A stretch of DNA of 64,000 nucleotides from an uncultured Stakelama sp. (GCA_964649315.1 CAZYOU010000002.1:1379-65378), one strand, 5' to 3'. Numbered from the stretch's first letter, positions 2,226 through 11,409 are shown. The notes: generated by a model not told the origin, from the letters alone. Translations and numbers: made by a program.

Positions 2226-3594
2226 AAGCTTCCCGATAGCGTTTCACGACCGTCAGCGCGACGATGTTGAGCAGCAGCGTGATGACGAACAGGGTAAGGC
2301 CCAGCGCAAAGGCGGCAAGCGTCTTGGGGCTGTCGAACTCCGCTTCGCCGGTCAACAGATCGACGATCTGTTTGGTGACGGTGGTCGCGCTGGCGAGCGG
2401 GTTGAGCGTCAGCGTGGCGATGCCCGATGCGGCCATCACCACGATCATCGTTTCACCGATTGCCCGGCTGATCGCGAGCAACACGCCACCAACGACGCCG
2501 GGCAGCGCGGCAGGCAGAAGCACGCGGCGGATCGTCTCCGACGTTGTCGCGCCCATCGCCAGCGATCCGTCGCGCATCGATGCGGGTACTGCGGCGATTG
2601 AATCATCGGCCATTGATGACACAAACGGGATGATCATCACCCCCATTACCAGCCCGGCGGCGAGCGCGCTTTCGGAGCTTGCCCAGGTGATGCCGACCGA
2701 AACGGCGATATCCCGCACGGCTGGGGCAACGGTCAGCGCCGCAAAATACCCATAAACGACCGTCGGGACGCCCGCGAGCACCTCAAGGATCGGTTTCATC
2801 CAGCGGCGGACGCCGGGCGCGGCATATTGCGTCAGGTAAATCGCGCTCATCAGCCCGAACGGGATGGCGACGATCATCGCGATCACCGCGCCGATGAAGA
2901 AGGTGCCCCAGAACAGCGGCACCGCGCCGAGCGACGCACCGGGATCGCGAGCGTCGATCACCTGCGGGCTCCAATGCGTACCGGTCAGGAAATCGAGCAC
3001 CGGCACCATCTGGAAGAAGCGATAGGATTCGAATAGCAGCGAGCCGACGATCCCCGCCGTCGTAAGGATTGCGATCAGCGACGCGGCGAGCAGCAGCAGC
3101 ATTACCACTCGCTCGATCCGCGTCCGCGCACGGAAATCGGGGGTCAGCCGGGTATAGGCATAGGCGCCGCACGAAATCGCCAGCAACAGTGCCAGCGTCG
3201 ATCCCATCCAGTTATAGCGCGACTGGGCGGTAGCATAGGCGGGGGCCAGCGTCTGCGCGAGGGGGTTTGCGCTGGCTACCTGGCGGCCCTGCCCGATTGA
3301 TCGCGCCTCGCTGAGTACCGCCGCCCGTTCAAAACCGCGTGGCGGCAATTGCGCGGCGGCGGGCGATTGCAGGACGGTGTTGGTGACCATTGCGGGCGTG
3401 ATGACCAGCCATGTGGTGATGAAAAGCAGCGCCGGAATGACCATCCACATCGCGACATAAGTGCCGTGGTGCGACGGCAGCGAGCTGAAGCGCCGAGTCG
3501 ATCCGCGGCGAAATCCAACGGCGCGAACGCGCGCAGTGAGCCAGCCGATCAAGCCCAGACCGGCAATCAGAAAAAGGAGTAGCAAAATCGACAA
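2218..3594 (-). CDS. pstC: Phosphate ABC transporter permease PstC
   Basis: ILEVLAGVPTVVYG and RAIGETMIV motifs; TTG start; operon context. Confidence 0.95.
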   Translation of the reverse strand: MSILLLLFLIAGLGLIGWLTARVRAVGFRRGSTRRFSSLPSHHGTYVAMWMVIPALLFITTWLVITPAMVTNTVLQSPAAAQLPPRGFERAAVLSEARSIGQGRQVASANPLAQTLAPAYATAQSRYNWMGSTLALLLAISCGAYAYTRLTPDFRARTRIERVVMLLLLAASLIAILTTAGIVGSLLFESYRFFQMVPVLDFLTGTHWSPQVIDARDPGASLGAVPLFWGTFFIGAVIAMIVAIPFGLMSAIYLTQYAAPGVRRWMKPILEVLAGVPTVVYGYFAALTVAPAVRDIAVSVGITWASSESALAAGLVMGVMIIPFVSSMADDSIAAVPASMRDGSLAMGATTSETIRRVLLPAALPGVVGGVLLAISRAIGETMIVVMAASGIATLTLNPLASATTVTKQIVDLLTGEAEFDSPKTLAAFALGLTLFVITLLLNIVALTVVKRYREAYD

Positions 3595-3680
3595 AGGAAA
3601 TGTTCTTCAACTCTTCGGTTATCTGGGCGGAGGATCGGGGCAGTGCGGATGCGCGCCCCGATCCCGCAGGTTGGCATTCT

Positions 3681-4730
3681 TCAGTTCAGGGCACGTGCTT
3701 CCAGCGTGGTGCCGTTCTTGATGACTTCGGCAGAGGCATCACGCACTGCTTGTGGCGCGGCAATCAATCCGCGCTTCACCAGTGGTCCGCTTGCATCCCA
3801 TGATGCGGCATAGGCATCCAGAAACTTGGGCAGCCCCGGAATGGCCGTCAGATGCGCCTTCTTCACGTAGATCAGCAGCGGGCGTGCACCCGGGTAGGTG
3901 CCGCTCGTGATCGTTTCATAGGTCGGCGCGACGCCGTTGACCGGAACACCAACCAGATTGGCCTTGTTTTCCTCGAGGTAGCTGTAGCCGAAAATGCCGA
4001 CGGCATTTGGGTTCGACTGGAGCTTCTGGACGATCAGATTGTCATTCTCACCGGCATCGACATAAGGGCCATCGTCGCGCACCCGGGTGCAGGCATTGGC
4101 ATAATCATCGGGCTTTTTGTCCTTCAGCTTGACGCTATCGGGATAGATCGCTGCACAGCCGCGCGCCAGAATCAGCTCGGCAAGCGCATCGCGCGTGCCG
4201 CTAGTTGATGGCGGGCCATAGACCTGGATCGGAATCGCGGGCAGCGCCGGGTTCACCTCTTTCCAGGTTTTCGCGGTGTTCGGCTTGCCCTTGGGATTGG
4301 CGGCGAGTGCCAGATAAACGTCAACCGGCGTCAGCGTGAGCTTCGGCCCGTCCTTGGCCTCGGCAAAGGCGATCCCGTCAAGGCCGACCTGGATTTCCAT
4401 GATCCGGTCAACGCCATTTTCAACGCAGCTGTTGAATTCCGACAGCTTCATTCGGCGCGACGCATTGGCGATGTCGGGATGCTGCGCGCCAACGCCGGCG
4501 CAGAACAGCTTCATGCCCGCACCCGTGCCGGTCGATTCGATCACCGGCGCTTTCATGCCCGGATTCTGATTGACGAACTGCTCCGCAACCAATGTGGTAA
4601 ACGGATAAACCGTTGATGATCCAACGACCTTGATCTGGTCGCGCGAGCCCGCGCCACCCCCATTGGCCTGATCGTCGCACGCACTCAGCCCGAGCACGGT
4701 AGCCGCCAAAATTGCGAAATGACGTCGCAT
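3681..4730 (-). CDS. pstS: Phosphate-binding lipoprotein PstS
   Basis: Lipobox LGLSAC, GSSTVYPF, GTGAG, SGTRD; strong RBS (GGAGGG). Confidence 0.93.
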   Translation of the reverse strand: MRRHFAILAATVLGLSACDDQANGGGAGSRDQIKVVGSSTVYPFTTLVAEQFVNQNPGMKAPVIESTGTGAGMKLFCAGVGAQHPDIANASRRMKLSEFNSCVENGVDRIMEIQVGLDGIAFAEAKDGPKLTLTPVDVYLALAANPKGKPNTAKTWKEVNPALPAIPIQVYGPPSTSGTRDALAELILARGCAAIYPDSVKLKDKKPDDYANACTRVRDDGPYVDAGENDNLIVQKLQSNPNAVGIFGYSYLEENKANLVGVPVNGVAPTYETITSGTYPGARPLLIYVKKAHLTAIPGLPKFLDAYAASWDASGPLVKRGLIAAPQAVRDASAEVIKNGTTLEARALN

Positions 4731-4769: not shown

Positions 4770-6056
4770 TCACTCGGAACGGGCTGCCTGTGTGACGGTG
4801 ACGTTACCGTTTGATGACGGTGCCTCCCGGTGGGTCGCAATCGCGGGGCTGGCGGGCAGCAGAATCGATGCCGTTGTGCCCTTGCCGACCACGCTGGTGA
4901 TATCGAGCCGCCCCCGATGCCGCTCGACGATATGCTTCACGATCGCGAGCCCAAGCCCGGTGCCGCCCAGCGACCGGCTACGTCCGGCATCGACTCGGTA
5001 AAATCGCTCGGTCAGGCGGGGCAGATGCTCAGGCGCGATGCCTTCGCCCTCATCGGTCACGCTGATCCGGACCATGCCCGTCTGATCTTTCCACAGACGC
5101 GAGGTAACCGGCGTGCCGCGCTTGCCATATTTCATCGCATTGCCGATCAGATTGTGGAGCACTTGCGACAGCTGCGCCCGGTCCCCGATCACATTCGGCA
5201 CCCCCGCCTCGATATCCGTGACAAGATCTTCGCCGCGATGATCATGGGTATCGGCGAGCTCGGCGTGCACTTCCTCCATCAACTGGTGCAGATCGACCTC
5301 AGTTGCTGGCACGCGGTATTTTTCCGCCTCGATGCGGCTGAGCGAGATCAGATCCTCCACCAGCCGCTGCATCCGCCGGGCTTCGTCGAACATCACCTTC
5401 AAGAACCGCGCGCGTACCTCGGCATCGGCGCCCGCCTTGTCGTCGCTCAACGTCTCGACAAAGCCAAGGATCGATGCGAGCGGGGTGCGGAGTTCGTGGC
5501 TGGCATTGGCGACGAAATCGACTCGCATCCGCTCGGCCGCATAGCTACCGGTCTGGTCGATCAGATGGACGACGCGGCGGCCATCGGTCATCGTCGTCAC
5601 CCGCATTTCCCAGCGCTGGTCAAGCGTGCCAAGACCGACAAGGTTGATCGGGCCATTCGACATCGCCCGCATATTGGTCAGTCGTTCGGCGGCAGCCGGG
5701 TGGCGAATCGCGAGCCGCACATCCTCGCCAATGATATGCCCACCGAGCAGCGCGCGCGCGGGCAGGTTGGCGTGCGCCACGCGCCCCTCTGCCACGATCA
5801 GGATGGGCTCGACGATCGCCTCGATCATCTCGTCGACATTGACCGGGGCCGCGCGCCGATCGGCCGGGGTTTCGATTGGCGGCGGCGCTTCGACGGCGTG
5901 GTCGCCAGTGCCTGCCGCAATCAGCACCGCAGCAACCCCGCCGACCAGCACGATCAGCCCACCTTGCAGACTCTCGACAATCAACGCGATCGCCATCGCG
6001 GCGATGACAATGACGGCGATGGCGGTGAGCGTACGAAGGCCGAATGTATCGAGCAT
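4770..6056 (-). CDS. phoR: PhoR-like sensor histidine kinase
   Basis: DFVANASHELRTPL H-box, N box NLIGNAMKY, G boxes DEGEGI and GTGLGL. Start reassigned to ATG 6056 (MLDTF...), just before the TM segments. Confidence 0.9.
   Translation of the reverse strand: MLDTFGLRTLTAIAVIVIAAMAIALIVESLQGGLIVLVGGVAAVLIAAGTGDHAVEAPPPIETPADRRAAPVNVDEMIEAIVEPILIVAEGRVAHANLPARALLGGHIIGEDVRLAIRHPAAAERLTNMRAMSNGPINLVGLGTLDQRWEMRVTTMTDGRRVVHLIDQTGSYAAERMRVDFVANASHELRTPLASILGFVETLSDDKAGADAEVRARFLKVMFDEARRMQRLVEDLISLSRIEAEKYRVPATEVDLHQLMEEVHAELADTHDHRGEDLVTDIEAGVPNVIGDRAQLSQVLHNLIGNAMKYGKRGTPVTSRLWKDQTGMVRISVTDEGEGIAPEHLPRLTERFYRVDAGRSRSLGGTGLGLAIVKHIVERHRGRLDITSVVGKGTTASILLPASPAIATHREAPSSNGNVTVTQAARSE
4792..4820 (-). 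promoter_or_regulatory. Pho box: three 11-bp-phased PhoB half-sites upstream of pstS, inside the phoR 3' end
   Basis: Minus strand reads CCGTCATcaaa CGGTAACgtca CCGTCAC, compared with the consensus CTGTCAT-N4 direct repeats; about 60-90 bp upstream of the pstS start. Confidence 0.75.
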
Positions 6057-6225
6057 GACCGTCCAATAGCGCAATCGACATCGTCCTGCGAGGCCGGACG
6101 CTGCGCCCAATACGTTGGCAATGATGGTTACCCGCCTTGCGCGCGATTTATGATTGTGAAAGGGGCGAGGGTGCATGCAGGATCGCAAGGCAAGGCCTGT
6201 ACGAGGCCCGGATGATGGAACGGCG

Positions 6226-6645
6226 ATGAGCGACGACTGCCCACCGGACGATAGCCCCGACGATATCGCTGCTTCACCTCCGCAGCCCAGTCGCCGCTCG
6301 CTGATGCTGGGGGCGGCCGGTGCGACAGCGATCCTCTCGATCCGCCCGGCGCTGGCGCAAACCGCTGCGTCGGTGCTGACCTGTGAGATTCCCGTGCCCG
6401 ATCCGGCGCGGTCGGGCAGCTACATCGCCGCGAACGGCACGTTGGTGCCGGCTGGCACGCCCGGGGCTTTCCCGCCCGCGCGCACACCGTTCAAGGGCGA
6501 GGATGTCCGCCGCGCGCTCGCAGGTGGGCGGCTGCCCGGGATGGATAGCGAGCGGACCCGCGCCTACCTTCAATACATCCGGCGCCTGCAATCGGGCACC
6601 AGCGGCTTTACCTGCTTTGCATCGCTGCAGATGCCACGCGGCTGA
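6226..6645 (+). CDS. Twin-arginine-signal orphan protein; candidate substrate or precursor of the adjacent PqqD/kinase/NTase operon
   Basis: SRRSLMLG followed by a hydrophobic stretch ending ALA; C-terminal SGTSGFTCFASL; first gene of a tightly packed operon. Start uncertain (6175 or 6226). Confidence 0.7.
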   Translation: MSDDCPPDDSPDDIAASPPQPSRRSLMLGAAGATAILSIRPALAQTAASVLTCEIPVPDPARSGSYIAANGTLVPAGTPGAFPPARTPFKGEDVRRALAGGRLPGMDSERTRAYLQYIRRLQSGTSGFTCFASLQMPRG

Positions 6646-6650
6646 GCGCC

Positions 6651-6932
6651 GTGGATGCTCTCCGTTATCGGTCAATGGCGGCGGCGACATTGCGCGTACT
6701 GGCGCTGGATGATCTGACACTCGTCTATCACCGCGCATCGGGAATCACGCATCTGCTCGCCCCGCCCGCGCCCGAAATTCTCGATGCACTTGCTGCCGAA
6801 CCGCTGACCAGCGCCGCATTGCTCGCGCGGTTGAGCGACGAATTCGATCTGGGCGATGCCGATCCGCAGGCACTTGCCCATCGGCTCGACGAACTGGTCG
6901 CTGCCGGTTTGGTCGAAATGATCGCAGCATGA
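6651..6932 (+). CDS. PqqD/RRE-family peptide chaperone ('HPr-rel-A system' type)
   Basis: 93 aa; beta-strand block LVYHRASGITHLL followed by a helical block ending LDELVAAGLV, the RRE layout; ATGA overlap with the kinase. Confidence 0.8.
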   Translation: MDALRYRSMAAATLRVLALDDLTLVYHRASGITHLLAPPAPEILDALAAEPLTSAALLARLSDEFDLGDADPQALAHRLDELVAAGLVEMIAA

Positions 6933-7789
6933 GGCATGTTCACCAGCTAAAGATCGGCCCGGTCGGTTTCCGGATCGGATCGGACTGGCAACGACCGATC
7001 GATCAGCTGCGCGATCTCTATACCGATTACCCCGGCCCGGATGATTGCGTTCCAGATTTCACCGTCCGGCTGTTCGCGGCGCGGCCGTGGCGGCGGTTCA
7101 TCCGCCCGTCGGTGATGATCGGGGGGGATTTCGTTCTGCCCGAAGCCGCCCCGCTGCCGCTCGCGCAGGGCTTGTTAGCGGCGGAAATGGGGATGAACCT
7201 GCAAATGGCGCTCGGCCAGCGGCGCTATCTGCTGCTCCATGCCTCGGTCGTCGAGCGCGACGGCCGGGCGTTGTTGATGACCGGCGAATCCGGGGCGGGC
7301 AAATCGACGCTGGCGGCAATGCTCGCCGCACGGGGCTGGCGGCTGATGGGCGATGAATTCGCGCTGGTCGATCCAGCGACTGGCTTGGTTCATGCTTTTC
7401 CCCGGCTGATCAGCCTGAAGAACGCGGCGATTGGCGTGATGGAAATGGCGCTGCCGGACGCCCGGTTCGGGCCGTTGCTCGCGGGGACGCCCAAGGGTGA
7501 CATCCGCCACCTGGTACCCGATGCCCGCGCGATCGCCGCGATGGACCAGCCGGCGCGCCCGGCATTGCTGCTGTTCCCGCGCTATGGCTTTGAGGCGGCG
7601 ACGCGTCCGGTCGGCCAGGGCGAGGTGTTCGTGCGGCTGACTCAGGCGTCGACCAATTATGTCGCGATGGGTGAGCGTGGGTTTGATGCGCTGTCGGGGC
7701 TTGTCGCCGCCGTGCCTAGCTGGGCGGTCGATTACCCTGATACCGATTCGGCGATTGACCAGGTCGAGACGTTATGGAGCGCGCTGTGA
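6929..7789 (+). CDS. HprK-related kinase A
   Basis: LLHASVVE..GRALLMTGESGAGKST (Walker A) and LMGDEF, typical of HPr-kinase-like enzymes; adjacent to a PqqD gene. Confidence 0.85.
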   Translation: MRHVHQLKIGPVGFRIGSDWQRPIDQLRDLYTDYPGPDDCVPDFTVRLFAARPWRRFIRPSVMIGGDFVLPEAAPLPLAQGLLAAEMGMNLQMALGQRRYLLLHASVVERDGRALLMTGESGAGKSTLAAMLAARGWRLMGDEFALVDPATGLVHAFPRLISLKNAAIGVMEMALPDARFGPLLAGTPKGDIRHLVPDARAIAAMDQPARPALLLFPRYGFEAATRPVGQGEVFVRLTQASTNYVAMGERGFDALSGLVAAVPSWAVDYPDTDSAIDQVETLWSAL

Positions 7790-8814
7790 CGCGCCGGGCC
7801 GACGGATGGTTGCTCGCCGGCGTGCTGCGCGATCCAGCAAGCAGCGCGGCGCTCGACGCGGACGGATGGACCGCGCTGCTTGCCATTGCCCGTGCGGAGC
7901 AATTGATCGGCTCGCTCGCGCACCGGCTTGATGGGCTGCCCCTGCCTGATGCCGCGGCGCGTATCCTTAGCGATGCCCGTGCATCCGCCGAACAAGGCCG
8001 CGTGGCGGCGCTTTGGGAGGCGGAGATGGCGCGCCGCATCCTAACGCCCCTCGACTGCCCGGTCGTGCTGCTGAAGGGCACCGCGTTCGTCGCGGCGGGG
8101 CTGGCGGCAGGGCAGGGGCGATCGATCGGTGATCTCGACATATTGGTGCCGCGCGGCACGCTGGATGATGTCGAGGCGGCGCTGATCGCAGGCGGCTGGG
8201 AATGGGTGAAGCCCGATCCGTATGACGACGCTTATTATCGCCGCTGGATGCACGAGCTGCCCCCGCTGATCCACCGTGACCGCGATCGGATGATCGATGT
8301 GCACCACACCATCCTGCCGCTCACCGCGCGGATCACGCCCGATCCAGCGGCGATCATCGCCGACAGCACGGTGCTCCAAAATGGCCTGCGCCTGCCGAGC
8401 GTGCCCGATATGCTGGTTCATGCCGCCGCCCACCTGTTCGCCGATGGCGATCTGGCCGGGGGGATGCGCAATCTGTGGGATGTGCACCGGCTGATCGAGG
8501 AATTCGGGCTGGAAGGGGTGGCGGCGCGTGCGGCGCATCACGGTCTGTCGGCTGAGATGGCGCGCGCCGTCCGACTTTCGGCGGCGCTGTACGCCAGGGA
8601 TGTCACCGATACGCGTGACAAGCTGACATTGATCGACCGGCTGTACCTGCGACGGCTGACCGCGCGGGATGAATGGGGCCGCGCGGTGCGCCCGGTAACG
8701 CGATTGGCCTTTTACATTCGCTCGCATGTATTGCGGATGCCGCCGCTCATGCTTGCCCGCCATTTATGGACGAAATGGCGGGGCGGTGGACCGAAAAACA
8801 ACGTGCTGCGCTGA
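7786..8814 (+). CDS. Nucleotidyltransferase family protein (NTP_transf_5-like)
   Basis: VLLKG...GR.IGDLDILV (DxD, Pol-beta-like) and IDVHH; GTG 7786 overlaps the kinase TGA (GTGA). Confidence 0.8.
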   Translation: MTRRADGWLLAGVLRDPASSAALDADGWTALLAIARAEQLIGSLAHRLDGLPLPDAAARILSDARASAEQGRVAALWEAEMARRILTPLDCPVVLLKGTAFVAAGLAAGQGRSIGDLDILVPRGTLDDVEAALIAGGWEWVKPDPYDDAYYRRWMHELPPLIHRDRDRMIDVHHTILPLTARITPDPAAIIADSTVLQNGLRLPSVPDMLVHAAAHLFADGDLAGGMRNLWDVHRLIEEFGLEGVAARAAHHGLSAEMARAVRLSAALYARDVTDTRDKLTLIDRLYLRRLTARDEWGRAVRPVTRLAFYIRSHVLRMPPLMLARHLWTKWRGGGPKNNVLR

Positions 8815-8817
8815 TGC

Positions 8818-8846
8818 TTGCGCGGGCGGATTGTGCTCGGTATAGG
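8818..8846 (+). promoter_or_regulatory. Sigma70-type promoter for tRNA-Pro
   Basis: TTGCGC-N17-TATAGG followed by a GC-rich discriminator. Confidence 0.55.
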
Positions 8847-8898
8847 CGCGCTTCCAAGCTTATCGCGACCGGCTGCCATGCAGCGCGCCGCACTCCGT

Positions 8899-8975
8899 CG
8901 GGGAGTAGCTCAGCCTGGTAGAGCACTGCCTTCGGGAGGCAGGGGCCGGAGGTTCGAATCCTCTCTTCCCGACCA
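8899..8975 (+). tRNA. tRNA-Pro (anticodon CGG)
   Basis: Acceptor stem CGGGGAG/CTTCCCG, anticodon stem CTGCC/GGCAG with loop TTCGGGA, T-loop GGTTCGAATCC, encoded CCA. Confidence 0.97.
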
Positions 8976-9137
8976 CTCTCAACCCGAACTTTTGACGTTG
9001 TAGCATCCGCGGCAGGCAGAGCTTTTTGCTGTGTCGCGCTCATCTTTGCTCAGCACCCCCACAGGCTCGGCGATCACCGTGCCTCGGATTATCGAAGCAA
9101 CATAAGGCTCACCATCCTCACATTTACATCTAAATAC

Positions 9138-9183: not shown

Positions 9184-11409
9184 TTGCGAGTGATTCGCAA
9201 AAGGGGTGTTGCTGTGTTCTTATCTTCCGTATCGTTGGTCGCGTTGCTGGCCGCCGCTGGTCCCATATCTGTCGGGGTTGCAGCCGACACGCTCGATGGA
9301 AACGGCCAGCGCGACATCATTGTCACCGCAACGCGGTCGCCATTGGCTGCACAAGATGCGCCCGCAACCGTGACGGTCAAATCCGATGAAGAAATCGCCG
9401 ACGAGCTGGCGACTGACATCAAGGATCTGGTGCGCTTTGAGGCGGGAGTCAGCGTCAGGCGGGCACCCGCGCGGTTCGGGGCGGCGTTCGGCACCACCGG
9501 ACGGGCGGGGAATGAAGGGTTCGTCATCCGCGGCATTGGCGGCAACCGGGTGCTGATCCAGGTCGATGGTGTCCGCGTACCCTATGGTTTTACCTTTGGC
9601 GCACAGGATGCCGGGCGGGGCGATTATGTTGATATCGGCCTCGTTAAATCGGTCGAATTTCTGCGCGGACCTGCATCGGCATTGTATGGCAGCGATGGCC
9701 TGGCTGGCGCGGTAAGCTTCGTCACGAGCGATCCGGTCGATATTCTGCGCGACAAGTCGGTCGGCGGGCTTGTGCGGGCGCAGTATAATTCGTCCGATAA
9801 TGAATTCACCGAAACCGCGATCCTGGCCGCGCGCAGCGGATCATGGTCGGCAATGGCGGCGTTTACCCGACGCGATTTCAATGAGCTCGACAATCAGGCG
9901 ACCGTTGGCGGTACCGGGGTGACGCGCAGCCTGCCCAACCCGCAGGACGGCCAGTCGAATGCTGCGCTTGCCAAAATCGTTTATGCGCCCGGCAATGGTC
10001 ACCGGGTTCGATTGACCGGCGAATATCTCGACAATCGGCTGTTCACTGATGTGCTCACCGGGCAAAGCGGCACCGTCGACCGACTGACTGCGCTCGACAC
10101 CGGTCAGCGCTGGCGGGTGGGCGGCGACTGGACCTTCGACGGCACTGGTACGCTCGAATTCGCCCGGTTGGGCGTGTACTGGCAGGACGCCGCCGATCGC
10201 CAGTTCAGCGATGAGGATCGGCGCGTGCTTGCCGACCGTGAACGGCTGAACACGCTCTACAACCGGGTTTATGGCGCCTCGGCAGAAGCGCGGCTGCGCT
10301 TTGCGACCGGGGCGGTGCAGCACCGCCTCATCATCGGCGGCGATATAAGCGTGTTGCGCCAGAGCGGCTTGCGTGACGGAGTCGTTCCCCCCTTTGGCGA
10401 GACTTTCCCGACGCGGGCTTTTCCGACCACCGATTTCACGCTCGCAGGGGCGTTCATTGGCGATGAACTAACGGTCGGGCCGGTGGCACTTTATCCCGCG
10501 CTGCGGTTCGATCATTATCGCCTGTCGCCGGAAAATGATCCGACGCTGATCGGTTTCACCGCCGGCGGACAGACCGGGCAGCGGGTGAGCCCCAAGATCG
10601 GCACCATTGTGAAACTGGGCGGGGTGTTTCGTGTGTTCGCCAGCTATGCGCGCGGCTTTCGGGCGCCAGAGCCGGGGCAGATTAACCAGTTTTTCGTCAA
10701 TCTGCCATCCGGATACACGTCGATCACCAACCCCGATCTGCGGCCGGAAACCAGCGAGAGCATCGAGGCAGGGCTGCGGCTGAACACGACCATGATCGAC
10801 GCGTCGGTCAGCGTGTTTCAGGCCGACTATGACGATTTCATCAGCCAGGAAATGGTGAGCGGCGGGTTCACGCCTGCCAACCCGGCGGTGTTCCAGTTCA
10901 TCAACCTCGATCGTGCCCAGGTGAAGGGTGCCGAGGCTCGGGTCGATGCGCGGGCCGGGGCGGGCTTCACCGGATCGCTCGCCGTTTCCTACGCGCAAGG
11001 GGATCAGATCGCACCTAGTGGTGTCCGCAGGCCGCTGGCAACGATCGACCCGTTGAAGGTCGTGGCCGGCCTTGGCTGGCGGGAGCGGGCCGGTCGGTTC
11101 GGCGGGCAACTGATCGTCACCCACAGCGCGCGCAAGGCAATGAATGCCGTAACGGGTGTGTGCACTGGCGAGTGTTTTCGCCCCAATGCGTTCACGATCA
11201 TCGACGCAACCGCCTTTGCCCGCCTGAACGAGCGGCTGATCCTGCGCGCGGGCATCTTCAACCTGACCGACGCGACCTATGGCTGGTGGTCCGACGTTCG
11301 CGGTCTGGCGGTGCCTCGGCCGCTACCCGCAGGCGCAATGGATACGCCACCCGCGGCCTTCACCCAGCCCGGTCGGAACGCCAGTTTTTCGCTCAGTTAT
11401 CGTTTCTAA
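9184..11409 (+). CDS. TonB-dependent receptor, heme/hemoglobin-receptor-like
   Basis: Signal peptide, IIVTATR, plug motif RGPASALYGSDGLAG, FRAP and NPDL motifs, C-terminal FSLSYRF. Confidence 0.85.
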   Translation: MRVIRKRGVAVFLSSVSLVALLAAAGPISVGVAADTLDGNGQRDIIVTATRSPLAAQDAPATVTVKSDEEIADELATDIKDLVRFEAGVSVRRAPARFGAAFGTTGRAGNEGFVIRGIGGNRVLIQVDGVRVPYGFTFGAQDAGRGDYVDIGLVKSVEFLRGPASALYGSDGLAGAVSFVTSDPVDILRDKSVGGLVRAQYNSSDNEFTETAILAARSGSWSAMAAFTRRDFNELDNQATVGGTGVTRSLPNPQDGQSNAALAKIVYAPGNGHRVRLTGEYLDNRLFTDVLTGQSGTVDRLTALDTGQRWRVGGDWTFDGTGTLEFARLGVYWQDAADRQFSDEDRRVLADRERLNTLYNRVYGASAEARLRFATGAVQHRLIIGGDISVLRQSGLRDGVVPPFGETFPTRAFPTTDFTLAGAFIGDELTVGPVALYPALRFDHYRLSPENDPTLIGFTAGGQTGQRVSPKIGTIVKLGGVFRVFASYARGFRAPEPGQINQFFVNLPSGYTSITNPDLRPETSESIEAGLRLNTTMIDASVSVFQADYDDFISQEMVSGGFTPANPAVFQFINLDRAQVKGAEARVDARAGAGFTGSLAVSYAQGDQIAPSGVRRPLATIDPLKVVAGLGWRERAGRFGGQLIVTHSARKAMNAVTGVCTGECFRPNAFTIIDATAFARLNERLILRAGIFNLTDATYGWWSDVRGLAVPRPLPAGAMDTPPAAFTQPGRNASFSLSYRF

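Follow-up and report, generated by a model that had tools for sequence, protein, structure and literature searches.

A four-gene cassette in an uncultured Stakelama sp. that joins the HPr-rel-A enzyme pair to a conserved, leader-bearing candidate substrate

The DNA analysed here, a stretch of 64,000 nucleotides that we call the window, comes from an uncultured Stakelama sp. (GCA_964649315.1 CAZYOU010000002.1:1379-65378). At positions 6226-8814 it carries a cassette of four genes, which encode a small protein with an export-type leader (gene 1), a PqqD-like protein, an HprK-like kinase and an NTP_transf_5 nucleotidyltransferase. The cassette is the Sphingomonadaceae version of a four-gene system composed of a leader protein, the HPr-rel-A pair of PqqD-like protein and kinase, and an NTP_transf_5 enzyme. 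The best-supported reading, to which we give a probability of roughly 0.55, is that the gene 1 product is the substrate of a two-step modification in the cytoplasm, guided by the recognition element (RRE) that PqqD-like proteins provide for peptides that are ribosomally synthesized and modified after translation (RiPPs), and that the general export machinery finishes the process. The adduct, the modified site and the dependence on twin-arginine translocation (Tat) are what we infer. A full-text literature search found no publication describing the four-gene system.

The cassette and its distribution

Open reading frame (ORF) calling places the four genes as follows.

6226-6645, + strand: gene 1, leader-bearing candidate substrate (ORF, 139 aa)
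6651-6932, + strand: PqqD_rel_X, PqqD-family (RRE-type) peptide chaperone of the HPr-rel-A system (93 aa; TIGR04353)
6929-7789, + strand: HprK-related kinase A, HprK_rel_A (286 aa; TIGR04352)
7774-8814, or from a GTG start at 7786, + strand: NTP_transf_5 nucleotidyltransferase (346 or 342 aa; PF14907)

A preliminary description of this DNA, made from the sequence alone, had spoken of four coupled genes. All four do lie on the same strand and three of them overlap: the stop codon of PqqD_rel_X runs into the kinase start in an ATGA (6929-6932), and the kinase and nucleotidyltransferase are joined by a GTGA (7786-7789), or, should translation begin at the ATG at 7774, by an overlap of 16 nt. Gene 1, however, is close-packed and not overlapping, being separated from PqqD_rel_X by a 5-nt gap. 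Because these two genes are in different frames, a read-through fusion of the two is absent. Given the 5-nt gap and the overlaps, there is no room for a further ORF in the operon. A promoter-like site was sought in the operon interior and none was found, and the single terminator-like hairpin in the operon (7243) is within shuffle expectation. RNA support for co-transcription was also sought, and the sequence was present only in DNA metagenome runs.

The identities proposed earlier for the three downstream genes are upheld by hidden Markov model (HMM) scores above the family cut-offs. PqqD_rel_X reaches 66.5 bits against TIGR04353 (cut-off 35), with the winged-helix family HTH_20 as its Pfam match; the kinase reaches 253.3 bits against TIGR04352 (cut-off 200), covering residues 6-282 of 286; and the nucleotidyltransferase reaches 147 bits against PF14907 (cut-off 31.2; 8e-43). 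The kinase has the Walker A sequence G-E-S-G-A-G-K-S-T at 7283-7309 and an acidic pair, D142-E143, at 7352-7357, and it aligns with the P-loop and DD region of HprK (PDB 1jb1). Across distant members its residues H104, G122, G124, K125, T127, D142, E143, K164 and N165 are invariant. The nucleotidyltransferase carries a metal-binding D120-x-D122 at 8131-8139 and a D175-x-H-H from 8296, and its invariant residues are K101, G102, R116, D120, D122, D175, H177 and H178. Judged by these residues, both enzymes look catalytically intact. An AlphaFold2 model of the nucleotidyltransferase (predicted local distance difference test, pLDDT, 86; predicted template modelling score, pTM, 0.85) was compared with solved folds using Foldseek and came closest to the MenT1 toxin nucleotidyltransferase, ANT(2'')-Ia and LnuA (E 5e-4 to 7e-2, probability ~1.0). 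ANT(2'')-Ia and LnuA are adenylyl- or nucleotidyltransferases with antibiotics as substrates, and such enzymes, as we read them, place a nucleoside monophosphate (NMP) on a hydroxyl group. For neither the nucleotidyltransferase nor the PqqD protein did a sequence search of the PDB yield a useful match.

Gene 1 had been taken for an orphan. It is not one but belongs to a large conserved family, with 2,549 homologues at E ≤ 1e-3, all of them unnamed; HMM scans of NCBIfam and Pfam gave no family match for it. The kinase was used to retrieve 80 loci of other Sphingomonadaceae species. About 76 of these keep all four genes in synteny, and PqqD lies upstream of the kinase in 78; identity across these loci is 51-97% for gene 1 versus 44-94% for PqqD. 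The phyletic sample comprised 151 Sphingomonadaceae genomes. The kinase occurs in 53 of them, and direct search recovered gene 1 in 48 of the 53. Four of the five apparent kinase-only genomes have a divergent gene 1 homologue in the same upstream position, with the leader RRxhLKLGAhAxPAVxTL..., an S-x-x-x-C-x-[IV]-P-x-P motif and a C-terminal G-x-[ST]-C-[FLV]-x-S-[LI], and this last motif is retained in homologues that are otherwise only ~30% identical to gene 1. The fifth genome (G380, locus L123) is without a Tat-like protein or PqqD directly upstream of the kinase. None of the 151 genomes convincingly has gene 1 but not the kinase; three gene-1-only matches are weak (E ~1e-4) and lie within long unrelated frames. 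In two genomes, G320 and G470, gene 1 sits beside phoR and the trio of enzyme genes elsewhere (163 kb off in G320), and both parts are kept. Failure of gene 1 to co-occur with the other three genes had been set beforehand as the outcome that would speak decisively against the substrate reading; co-occurrence is strong.

Several of these loci have features of their own. The kinase of L123 (8116-9246) is of the beta/gamma type (290 bits), and upstream of it are a double cold-shock-domain protein and a secreted 170-aa protein. The gene 1 homologues of the two unlinked genomes lie at 4889-5287 in L135 (G320) and 5106-5519 in L136 (G470), and the G320 trio now sits after a MarR-type gene (L124). 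In L134 (G513, one of the four genomes with a divergent homologue; 3340-3848) the gene 1 homologue is divided between two frames, and the kinase match beside it is cut short (residues 7-212), possibly a decaying cassette or else an assembly error in a genome with 7% contamination. In the homologue from L132 (G460; 3243-3869) a long (PGGPNP)n repeat separates the C-terminal domain from the N-proximal Cys motif, which suggests that the motif-bearing ends are separable modules on a tolerant linker.

The distant set consisted of the 30 best HprK_rel_A loci, from 30 genomes; TIGR04352 scores are 330-395 bits in beta/gamma types versus 235-253 in sphingomonad kinases. An automated rule scores the frame immediately upstream of PqqD as Tat-like in 25 of the 30, and the count by eye is 26. 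This rule is the third version, the first having been too loose (11% background) and the second too strict (17/30); it selects 5.9% of frames in the Stakelama genome, which gives a binomial p of ~7e-15 with the null tripled. An NTP_transf_5 gene follows in 22 of the 30. The partner proteins have at least two unrelated types of mature domain and no family match in NCBIfam or Pfam. Type A partners (150-200 aa) have S-N-x-x-C after the leader and, in 21 proteins, [ST]-C-W-x-S-[FL] near the C-terminus; type B partners (200-290 aa) have C-S-x-S-G after the leader and a different C-terminal domain. An S-x(1-4)-C following the leader is found in the divergent Sphingomonadaceae homologues as well as in type A partners. 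With the divergent Sphingomonadaceae sequences added, hhalign aligned the gene 1 family with type A end to end at 93.5% (E 2e-7, permissive local mode) and 97% (global mode), lining up the leader, the first Cys, a GG and T-C-F-A-S-L against S-C-W-x-S-F; its default local mode aligned the leader and first Cys only, at 57%. Gene 1 and the type A partners are thus probably remote homologues and, if so, the four-gene arrangement would be ancestral. We also tried a leader motif common to the clades and rejected it, since an HMM built from the 21 type A leaders did not bring gene 1 into the top ranks when run on the frames of the Stakelama genome.

Gene 1 as a candidate substrate

Three segments of the gene 1 product are central to the argument.

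6226-6357, + strand: leader or predicted signal peptide (residues 1-44), with the RR at 6292-6297 and cleavage predicted to follow A-L-A at 6357
6370-6399, + strand: N-proximal invariant motif S49-x-x-x-C53-E-I-P-V-P (alignment; low-confidence, flexible segment in AlphaFold2)
6604-6627, + strand: C-terminal invariant motif G127-F-T129-C130-F-A-S133-L (invariant in 48 sequences; tail predicted disordered)

The start of gene 1 is at 6226 and not at the upstream ATG at 6175, since an MSD(D/E) start is kept in 48 relatives. In the alignment of 48 sequences R23, L26, G29, P41-A42-L43-A44, S49, C53, T129, C130 and S133 are invariant. The leader comprises a variable acidic N-region, R23-R24, a hydrophobic h-region and the c-region S-I-R-P-A-L-A|Q-T. 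In gene 1 itself the RR region reads S-R-R-S-L-M-L and is followed by a mildly hydrophobic stretch, an Arg-Pro c-region and A-L-A|Q, and inspection of the 48 sequences recognizes Tat-type features throughout (T/S-R-R-x-L-M-L-G-A...S-I-R-P-A-L-A|Q-T). The genome encodes TatC (216 bits). The Tat signal that had been claimed for gene 1 is borne out in its RR, h-region, c-region and A-x-A pattern but not by any curated Tat model at E ≤ 10, and the assignment is one of pattern only.

Could this leader do more than direct export? The mean frequency of the majority residue is 0.87 from the RR to AQT and 0.81 in the mature part of gene 1, and in PstS from the same loci, used as a control, it is 0.55 in the signal and 0.74 in the mature part. 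By this measure the gene 1 leader is more conserved than the protein it precedes, the reverse of PstS. An HMM of the leader and first mature residues (SRRS through CEIPVPD) retrieves from the Stakelama genome gene 1 alone, at E 5.5e-23, the next best match being at 0.13; a regular expression combining the RR and the C-terminal motif finds gene 1 plus one other frame, apparently spurious. Over-conservation of the leader together with this specificity points to a constraint beyond export.

The AlphaFold2 model of gene 1, built with the 48 sequences, has a core (residues 60-125) made of a hairpin and two helices, with pLDDT 79-90. Residues 1-48 and 126-139 are predicted to be disordered, pLDDT falls below 50 at 132-138, and confidence is low around S49-C53. 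No fold match for the core of the mature domain was found in the PDB. Segments that are invariant yet predicted to be flexible are what would be expected of sites for recognition or modification by an enzyme. The protein ends in S133-L-Q-M-P-R-G, and the last residue is Gly in nearly all relatives. Our preferred candidate for the modification site is S133 or T129 in the C-terminal motif.

We propose that the system would work in five steps. The gene 1 product would be made with its leader; here the gene, its conservation and the leader pattern are observed. The PqqD/RRE protein would bind the leader in the cytoplasm and offer the flexible tails to the kinase, a step suggested by RRE biology and by conservation being higher in the leader than in the mature protein. 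The P-loop HprK-like kinase would then phosphorylate an invariant Ser or Thr that neighbours an invariant Cys, with S133 or T129 as the likeliest target and S49, close to C53, as the alternative; the model for this step is the lasso kinases PadeK and PsmK, which phosphorylate a Ser of an unfolded tail. The nucleotidyltransferase, whose nearest solved folds we read as transferring NMP onto hydroxyl groups, would next extend this site to a phosphodiester-linked nucleotide or sugar, for which PsmN of pseudomycoidin is a precedent. Finally, the housekeeping Tat translocase (tatC is present) and signal peptidase would export the protein and cut off the leader, which would explain an operon with neither a protease nor a transporter of its own. 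The mature protein probably acts in the envelope, together with the XrtA/PEP-CTERM exopolysaccharide system described below.

A broader version of this proposal is more tentative. It is possible, though we would not rely on it, that the export signal doubles as a RiPP-style leader: PqqD/RRE would read the twin-arginine leader of a folded protein, the kinase and NTP_transf_5 enzyme would add a phosphodiester-linked group (nucleotide, sugar-phosphate or polyphosphate) to the Ser beside the invariant Cys, Tat and signal peptidase would replace a dedicated exporter and protease, and the product would be an unrecognized component of the XrtA/PEP-CTERM matrix (floc or biofilm) across Proteobacteria.

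Several points weigh against gene 1 as the substrate. The case for it consists of co-occurrence and analogy throughout, and the genes of an operon are gained and lost jointly regardless of their relationship. Three to five of the 30 distant loci (L101, L104 and L105 among them), and likewise L123, have no upstream Tat-like protein. As judged by sequence comparison there is no recognition motif common to the clades; each PqqD may track its own leader. Scans of Pfam and NCBIfam at E ≤ 10 matched no Tat-signal model to the gene 1 leader or to four distant partners, although these libraries should include such models and the HMMER filters may drop very short, weak matches. The control for leader conservation is one protein, PstS. 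The lasso precedent, too, fits only in part: lasso kinases target the very last Ser while the invariant Ser of gene 1 lies 7 residues from the end, and the candidate substrate, 95 aa long and with a folded core, is a protein as opposed to a short lasso peptide, bearing an export-type leader in its full 139-aa form. The earlier idea of an RRE-guided substrate thus gains from the co-occurrence, from the intact enzymes and from the failure to find a lasso peptidase, and loses on the position of the Ser.

Alternative readings and genomic surroundings

A link to the XrtA/PEP-CTERM exosortase is context that the preliminary description missed. The distant cassettes lie between the glycosyltransferase stp1 of the XrtA system (TIGR03087, 518 bits) and its amidotransferase (TIGR03108, 941 bits). 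In the Stakelama genome an EpsI domain and exosortase A (TIGR03109, 322 bits) form a single fusion protein, encoded on another contig (C29:1439-3196) and unlinked to the cassette. Among Sphingomonadaceae, XrtA scores above cut-off in 52 of 53 cassette-bearing versus 49 of 98 cassette-free genomes (Fisher 8e-11, kinship ignored). In a phylum-wide sample an exosortase is found in 27 of 62 cassette genomes versus 34 of 339 others (p 2e-9), a figure to be read as enrichment only and with unreliable negatives, the sensitivity being doubtful: many cassette genomes give no exosortase match, and the same-genus pair G006/G022 disagrees. Gene 1 has no PEP-CTERM sorting signal. In two divergent genomes of the family (G407 and G460), XrtA is only ~13 kb from the cassette.

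This context makes room for a different assignment of roles, in which the Tat-like protein is a working partner in the periplasm and the trio modifies something else, such as PEP-CTERM proteins, another peptide with its gene elsewhere, or an XrtA-system precursor of polysaccharide or lipid. We regard this as unlikely, but it has several observations in its favour. Cassettes of the beta/gamma type sit inside XrtA/PEP-CTERM polysaccharide loci (TIGR03108, TIGR03087) and the Sphingomonadaceae cassette tracks XrtA; a cross-clade leader motif was not found; and the trio occurs without an adjacent Tat-like protein at a few loci and apart from gene 1 in G320 and G470. On the other hand, PqqD-family proteins bind peptides, and otherwise unrelated partners share only an N-terminal leader and short Ser/Cys motifs. 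The leader of gene 1 is over-conserved, and there is no other conserved small ORF in the cassette, given the 5-nt and overlapping junctions and the variable upstream spacer.

If gene 1 is the substrate, phosphorylation need not be the end product. A transient phosphate could be eliminated to a dehydro residue, and addition of Cys would give thioether (lanthionine-like) rings at S49...C53 and C130...S133, following the kinase-then-elimination logic by which class III-V lanthipeptides are made. Each partner type does have a Ser 1-4 residues from an invariant Cys after the leader, type A and sphingomonad proteins have such a pair near the C-terminus as well, and the Ser/Cys motifs are flexible in the model. 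Nevertheless we consider ring formation improbable: the operon has no lyase or cyclase homologue, phosphate elimination is not known for the nucleotidyltransferase fold, and both Cys residues could instead form a disulfide after export.

The surroundings of the cassette bear on a further reading and comprise three features.

4770-6056/6188, - strand: phoR, divergent neighbour outside the cassette (ORF; probable true start near 6056)
6136-6165, no strand assigned: conserved intergenic element between phoR and gene 1, CTTGCGC...GATTTATGATTGTGAAAGGGG (alignment, 10 Sphingomonadaceae loci)
8899-8975, + strand: tRNA-Pro(CGG), downstream edge of the conserved block (ARAGORN)

The cassette is indeed, as had been noted, transcribed divergently from phoR, which is the first gene of phoR-pstSCAB. 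The suggestion that this neighbourhood is incidental has fared less well. phoR adjoins gene 1 throughout the family, down to 44-49% PhoR identity, and does so even in G320 and G470, where the trio has moved; the adjacency cannot simply be called incidental, and either regulation or inheritance may account for it. Between the start codons of phoR and gene 1 the sole conserved block in 10 Sphingomonadaceae species is CTTGCGC...GATTTAYGATTGTGAAAGGG, of ~20-30 nt, the remainder of the spacer being variable. The block may be a shared promoter or operator. As a Pho box or a sigma-54 promoter it was rejected, the fit being poor or the elements not conserved.

From this arrangement one could argue that the cassette is a regulatory or physiological module of the Pho regulon concerned with phosphate. 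The persistence of phoR beside gene 1 and the conserved box in the spacer speak for it, but outside Sphingomonadaceae the cassette lies in XrtA polysaccharide loci and never beside pho genes, a clear Pho box was not recognized, and gene order within one family is explicable by inheritance alone. We therefore hold this reading to be very improbable.

That the cassette is a decayed lasso-peptide cluster minus its cyclase and peptidase, as the same three accessory protein types in phosphorylated or phosphoglycosylated lasso clusters might suggest, is effectively refuted by the four genes being intact and, in 53 of the 151 genomes of the family as well as across Proteobacteria, strongly constrained, by a 139-aa gene 1 product unlike a lasso precursor, and by the missing peptidase. 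The earlier statement that lasso enzymes are lacking agrees with our searches: the entire 95.6%-complete genome has no Transglut_core3 (PF13471) match, the peptidase domain, and the operon's four genes, flanked by phoR and tRNA-Pro, contain no asparagine-synthetase-like domain, a genome-wide search for the cyclase not having been made. Nor does the operon contain a lasso precursor of ~40-60 aa; gene 1, with 139 aa, has a confidently folded core.

Downstream, conserved synteny stops at tRNA-Pro(CGG) (8899-8975), which follows the cassette at no more than 7 of the 80 related loci. Neither the TonB-dependent receptor encoded at 9184-11409 nor the genes beyond it occur in the flanks of the relatives, and GC content drops to 0.52-0.54 at 13-14.5 kb, before a large region of polysaccharide genes. 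The region from the tRNA to ~15000 may be an island at the tRNA. Sequence nearly identical to window positions 6000-9000 (93-99% of sampled words) is present in metagenome runs from biofilters, biofilms, wastewater and freshwater in several studies, and the organism is a recurrent member of water-treatment biofilms.

Significance and comparison with known systems

The HPr-rel-A pair is catalogued in NCBIfam without a named substrate or function. The conserved fourth gene provides a concrete candidate with named residues, and gene 1 is probably the missing substrate of the catalogued enzyme trio. If this is true, leader-guided chemistry of the RiPP type reaches beyond short peptides to exported folded proteins, and a secretion signal doubles as a modification tag. 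The large PF14907 nucleotidyltransferase family would also gain its first function beyond lasso clusters, and a component would be added to the exosortase/PEP-CTERM systems by which water-treatment bacteria form biofilm and floc and which are poorly understood.

How does the cassette compare with systems already described? The catalytic core of the NTP_transf_5 protein superposes on those of MenT/AbiEii, ANT(2'')-Ia and LnuA, with the same G-x-D-x-D and third Asp. Identity is, however, 12-16% and the TM score ~0.35 over the query; the NTP_transf_5 protein has large extra helical domains at both ends, and the substrates of the solved enzymes are tRNA or antibiotics and not proteins. The likeness to the XrtA/PEP-CTERM system is one of location, with the distant cassettes inside XrtA loci and an XrtA-EpsI protein encoded on another contig of the Stakelama genome, but half of the family's genomes that lack the cassette have XrtA all the same.

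Proofreading chaperones of the TorD/DmsD/NapD type are cytoplasmic proteins that hold a twin-arginine leader until cofactor insertion is done. The proposed holding of the gene 1 leader in the cytoplasm until maturation would resemble their action, and the RR, weak h-region, basic c-region, A-x-A and tatC are in keeping with it. The chaperone here would differ in having a PqqD/RRE fold, and the proposed maturation is a covalent modification instead of the insertion of a cofactor.

In lasso-peptide tailoring, as in PadeK and its proteobacterial homologues and in PsmK/PsmN of pseudomycoidin, a PqqD-like RRE and a nucleotidyltransferase are encoded alongside an HPr-kinase homologue, as they are here (PMC8498205). 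In lasso precursors it is the C-terminal Ser that the HPr-kinase homologues phosphorylate, and the pseudomycoidin nucleotidyltransferase then puts hexoses on that phosphate (PMC8498205). In contrast to these clusters, the cassette is without a leader peptidase, cyclase or ATP-binding cassette (ABC) exporter.

The closest match is with the HPr-rel-A system of NCBIfam/TIGRFAMs, whose TIGR04352 and TIGR04353 members are here above cut-offs, adjacent and translationally coupled. The sphingomonad cassettes differ from the other HPr-rel-A cassettes in adjoining phoR rather than lying in an XrtA locus. The catalogue lists the enzyme pair only, with no named substrate, whereas here, as in most members that were examined, a fourth conserved component is present in the form of a leader-bearing protein.

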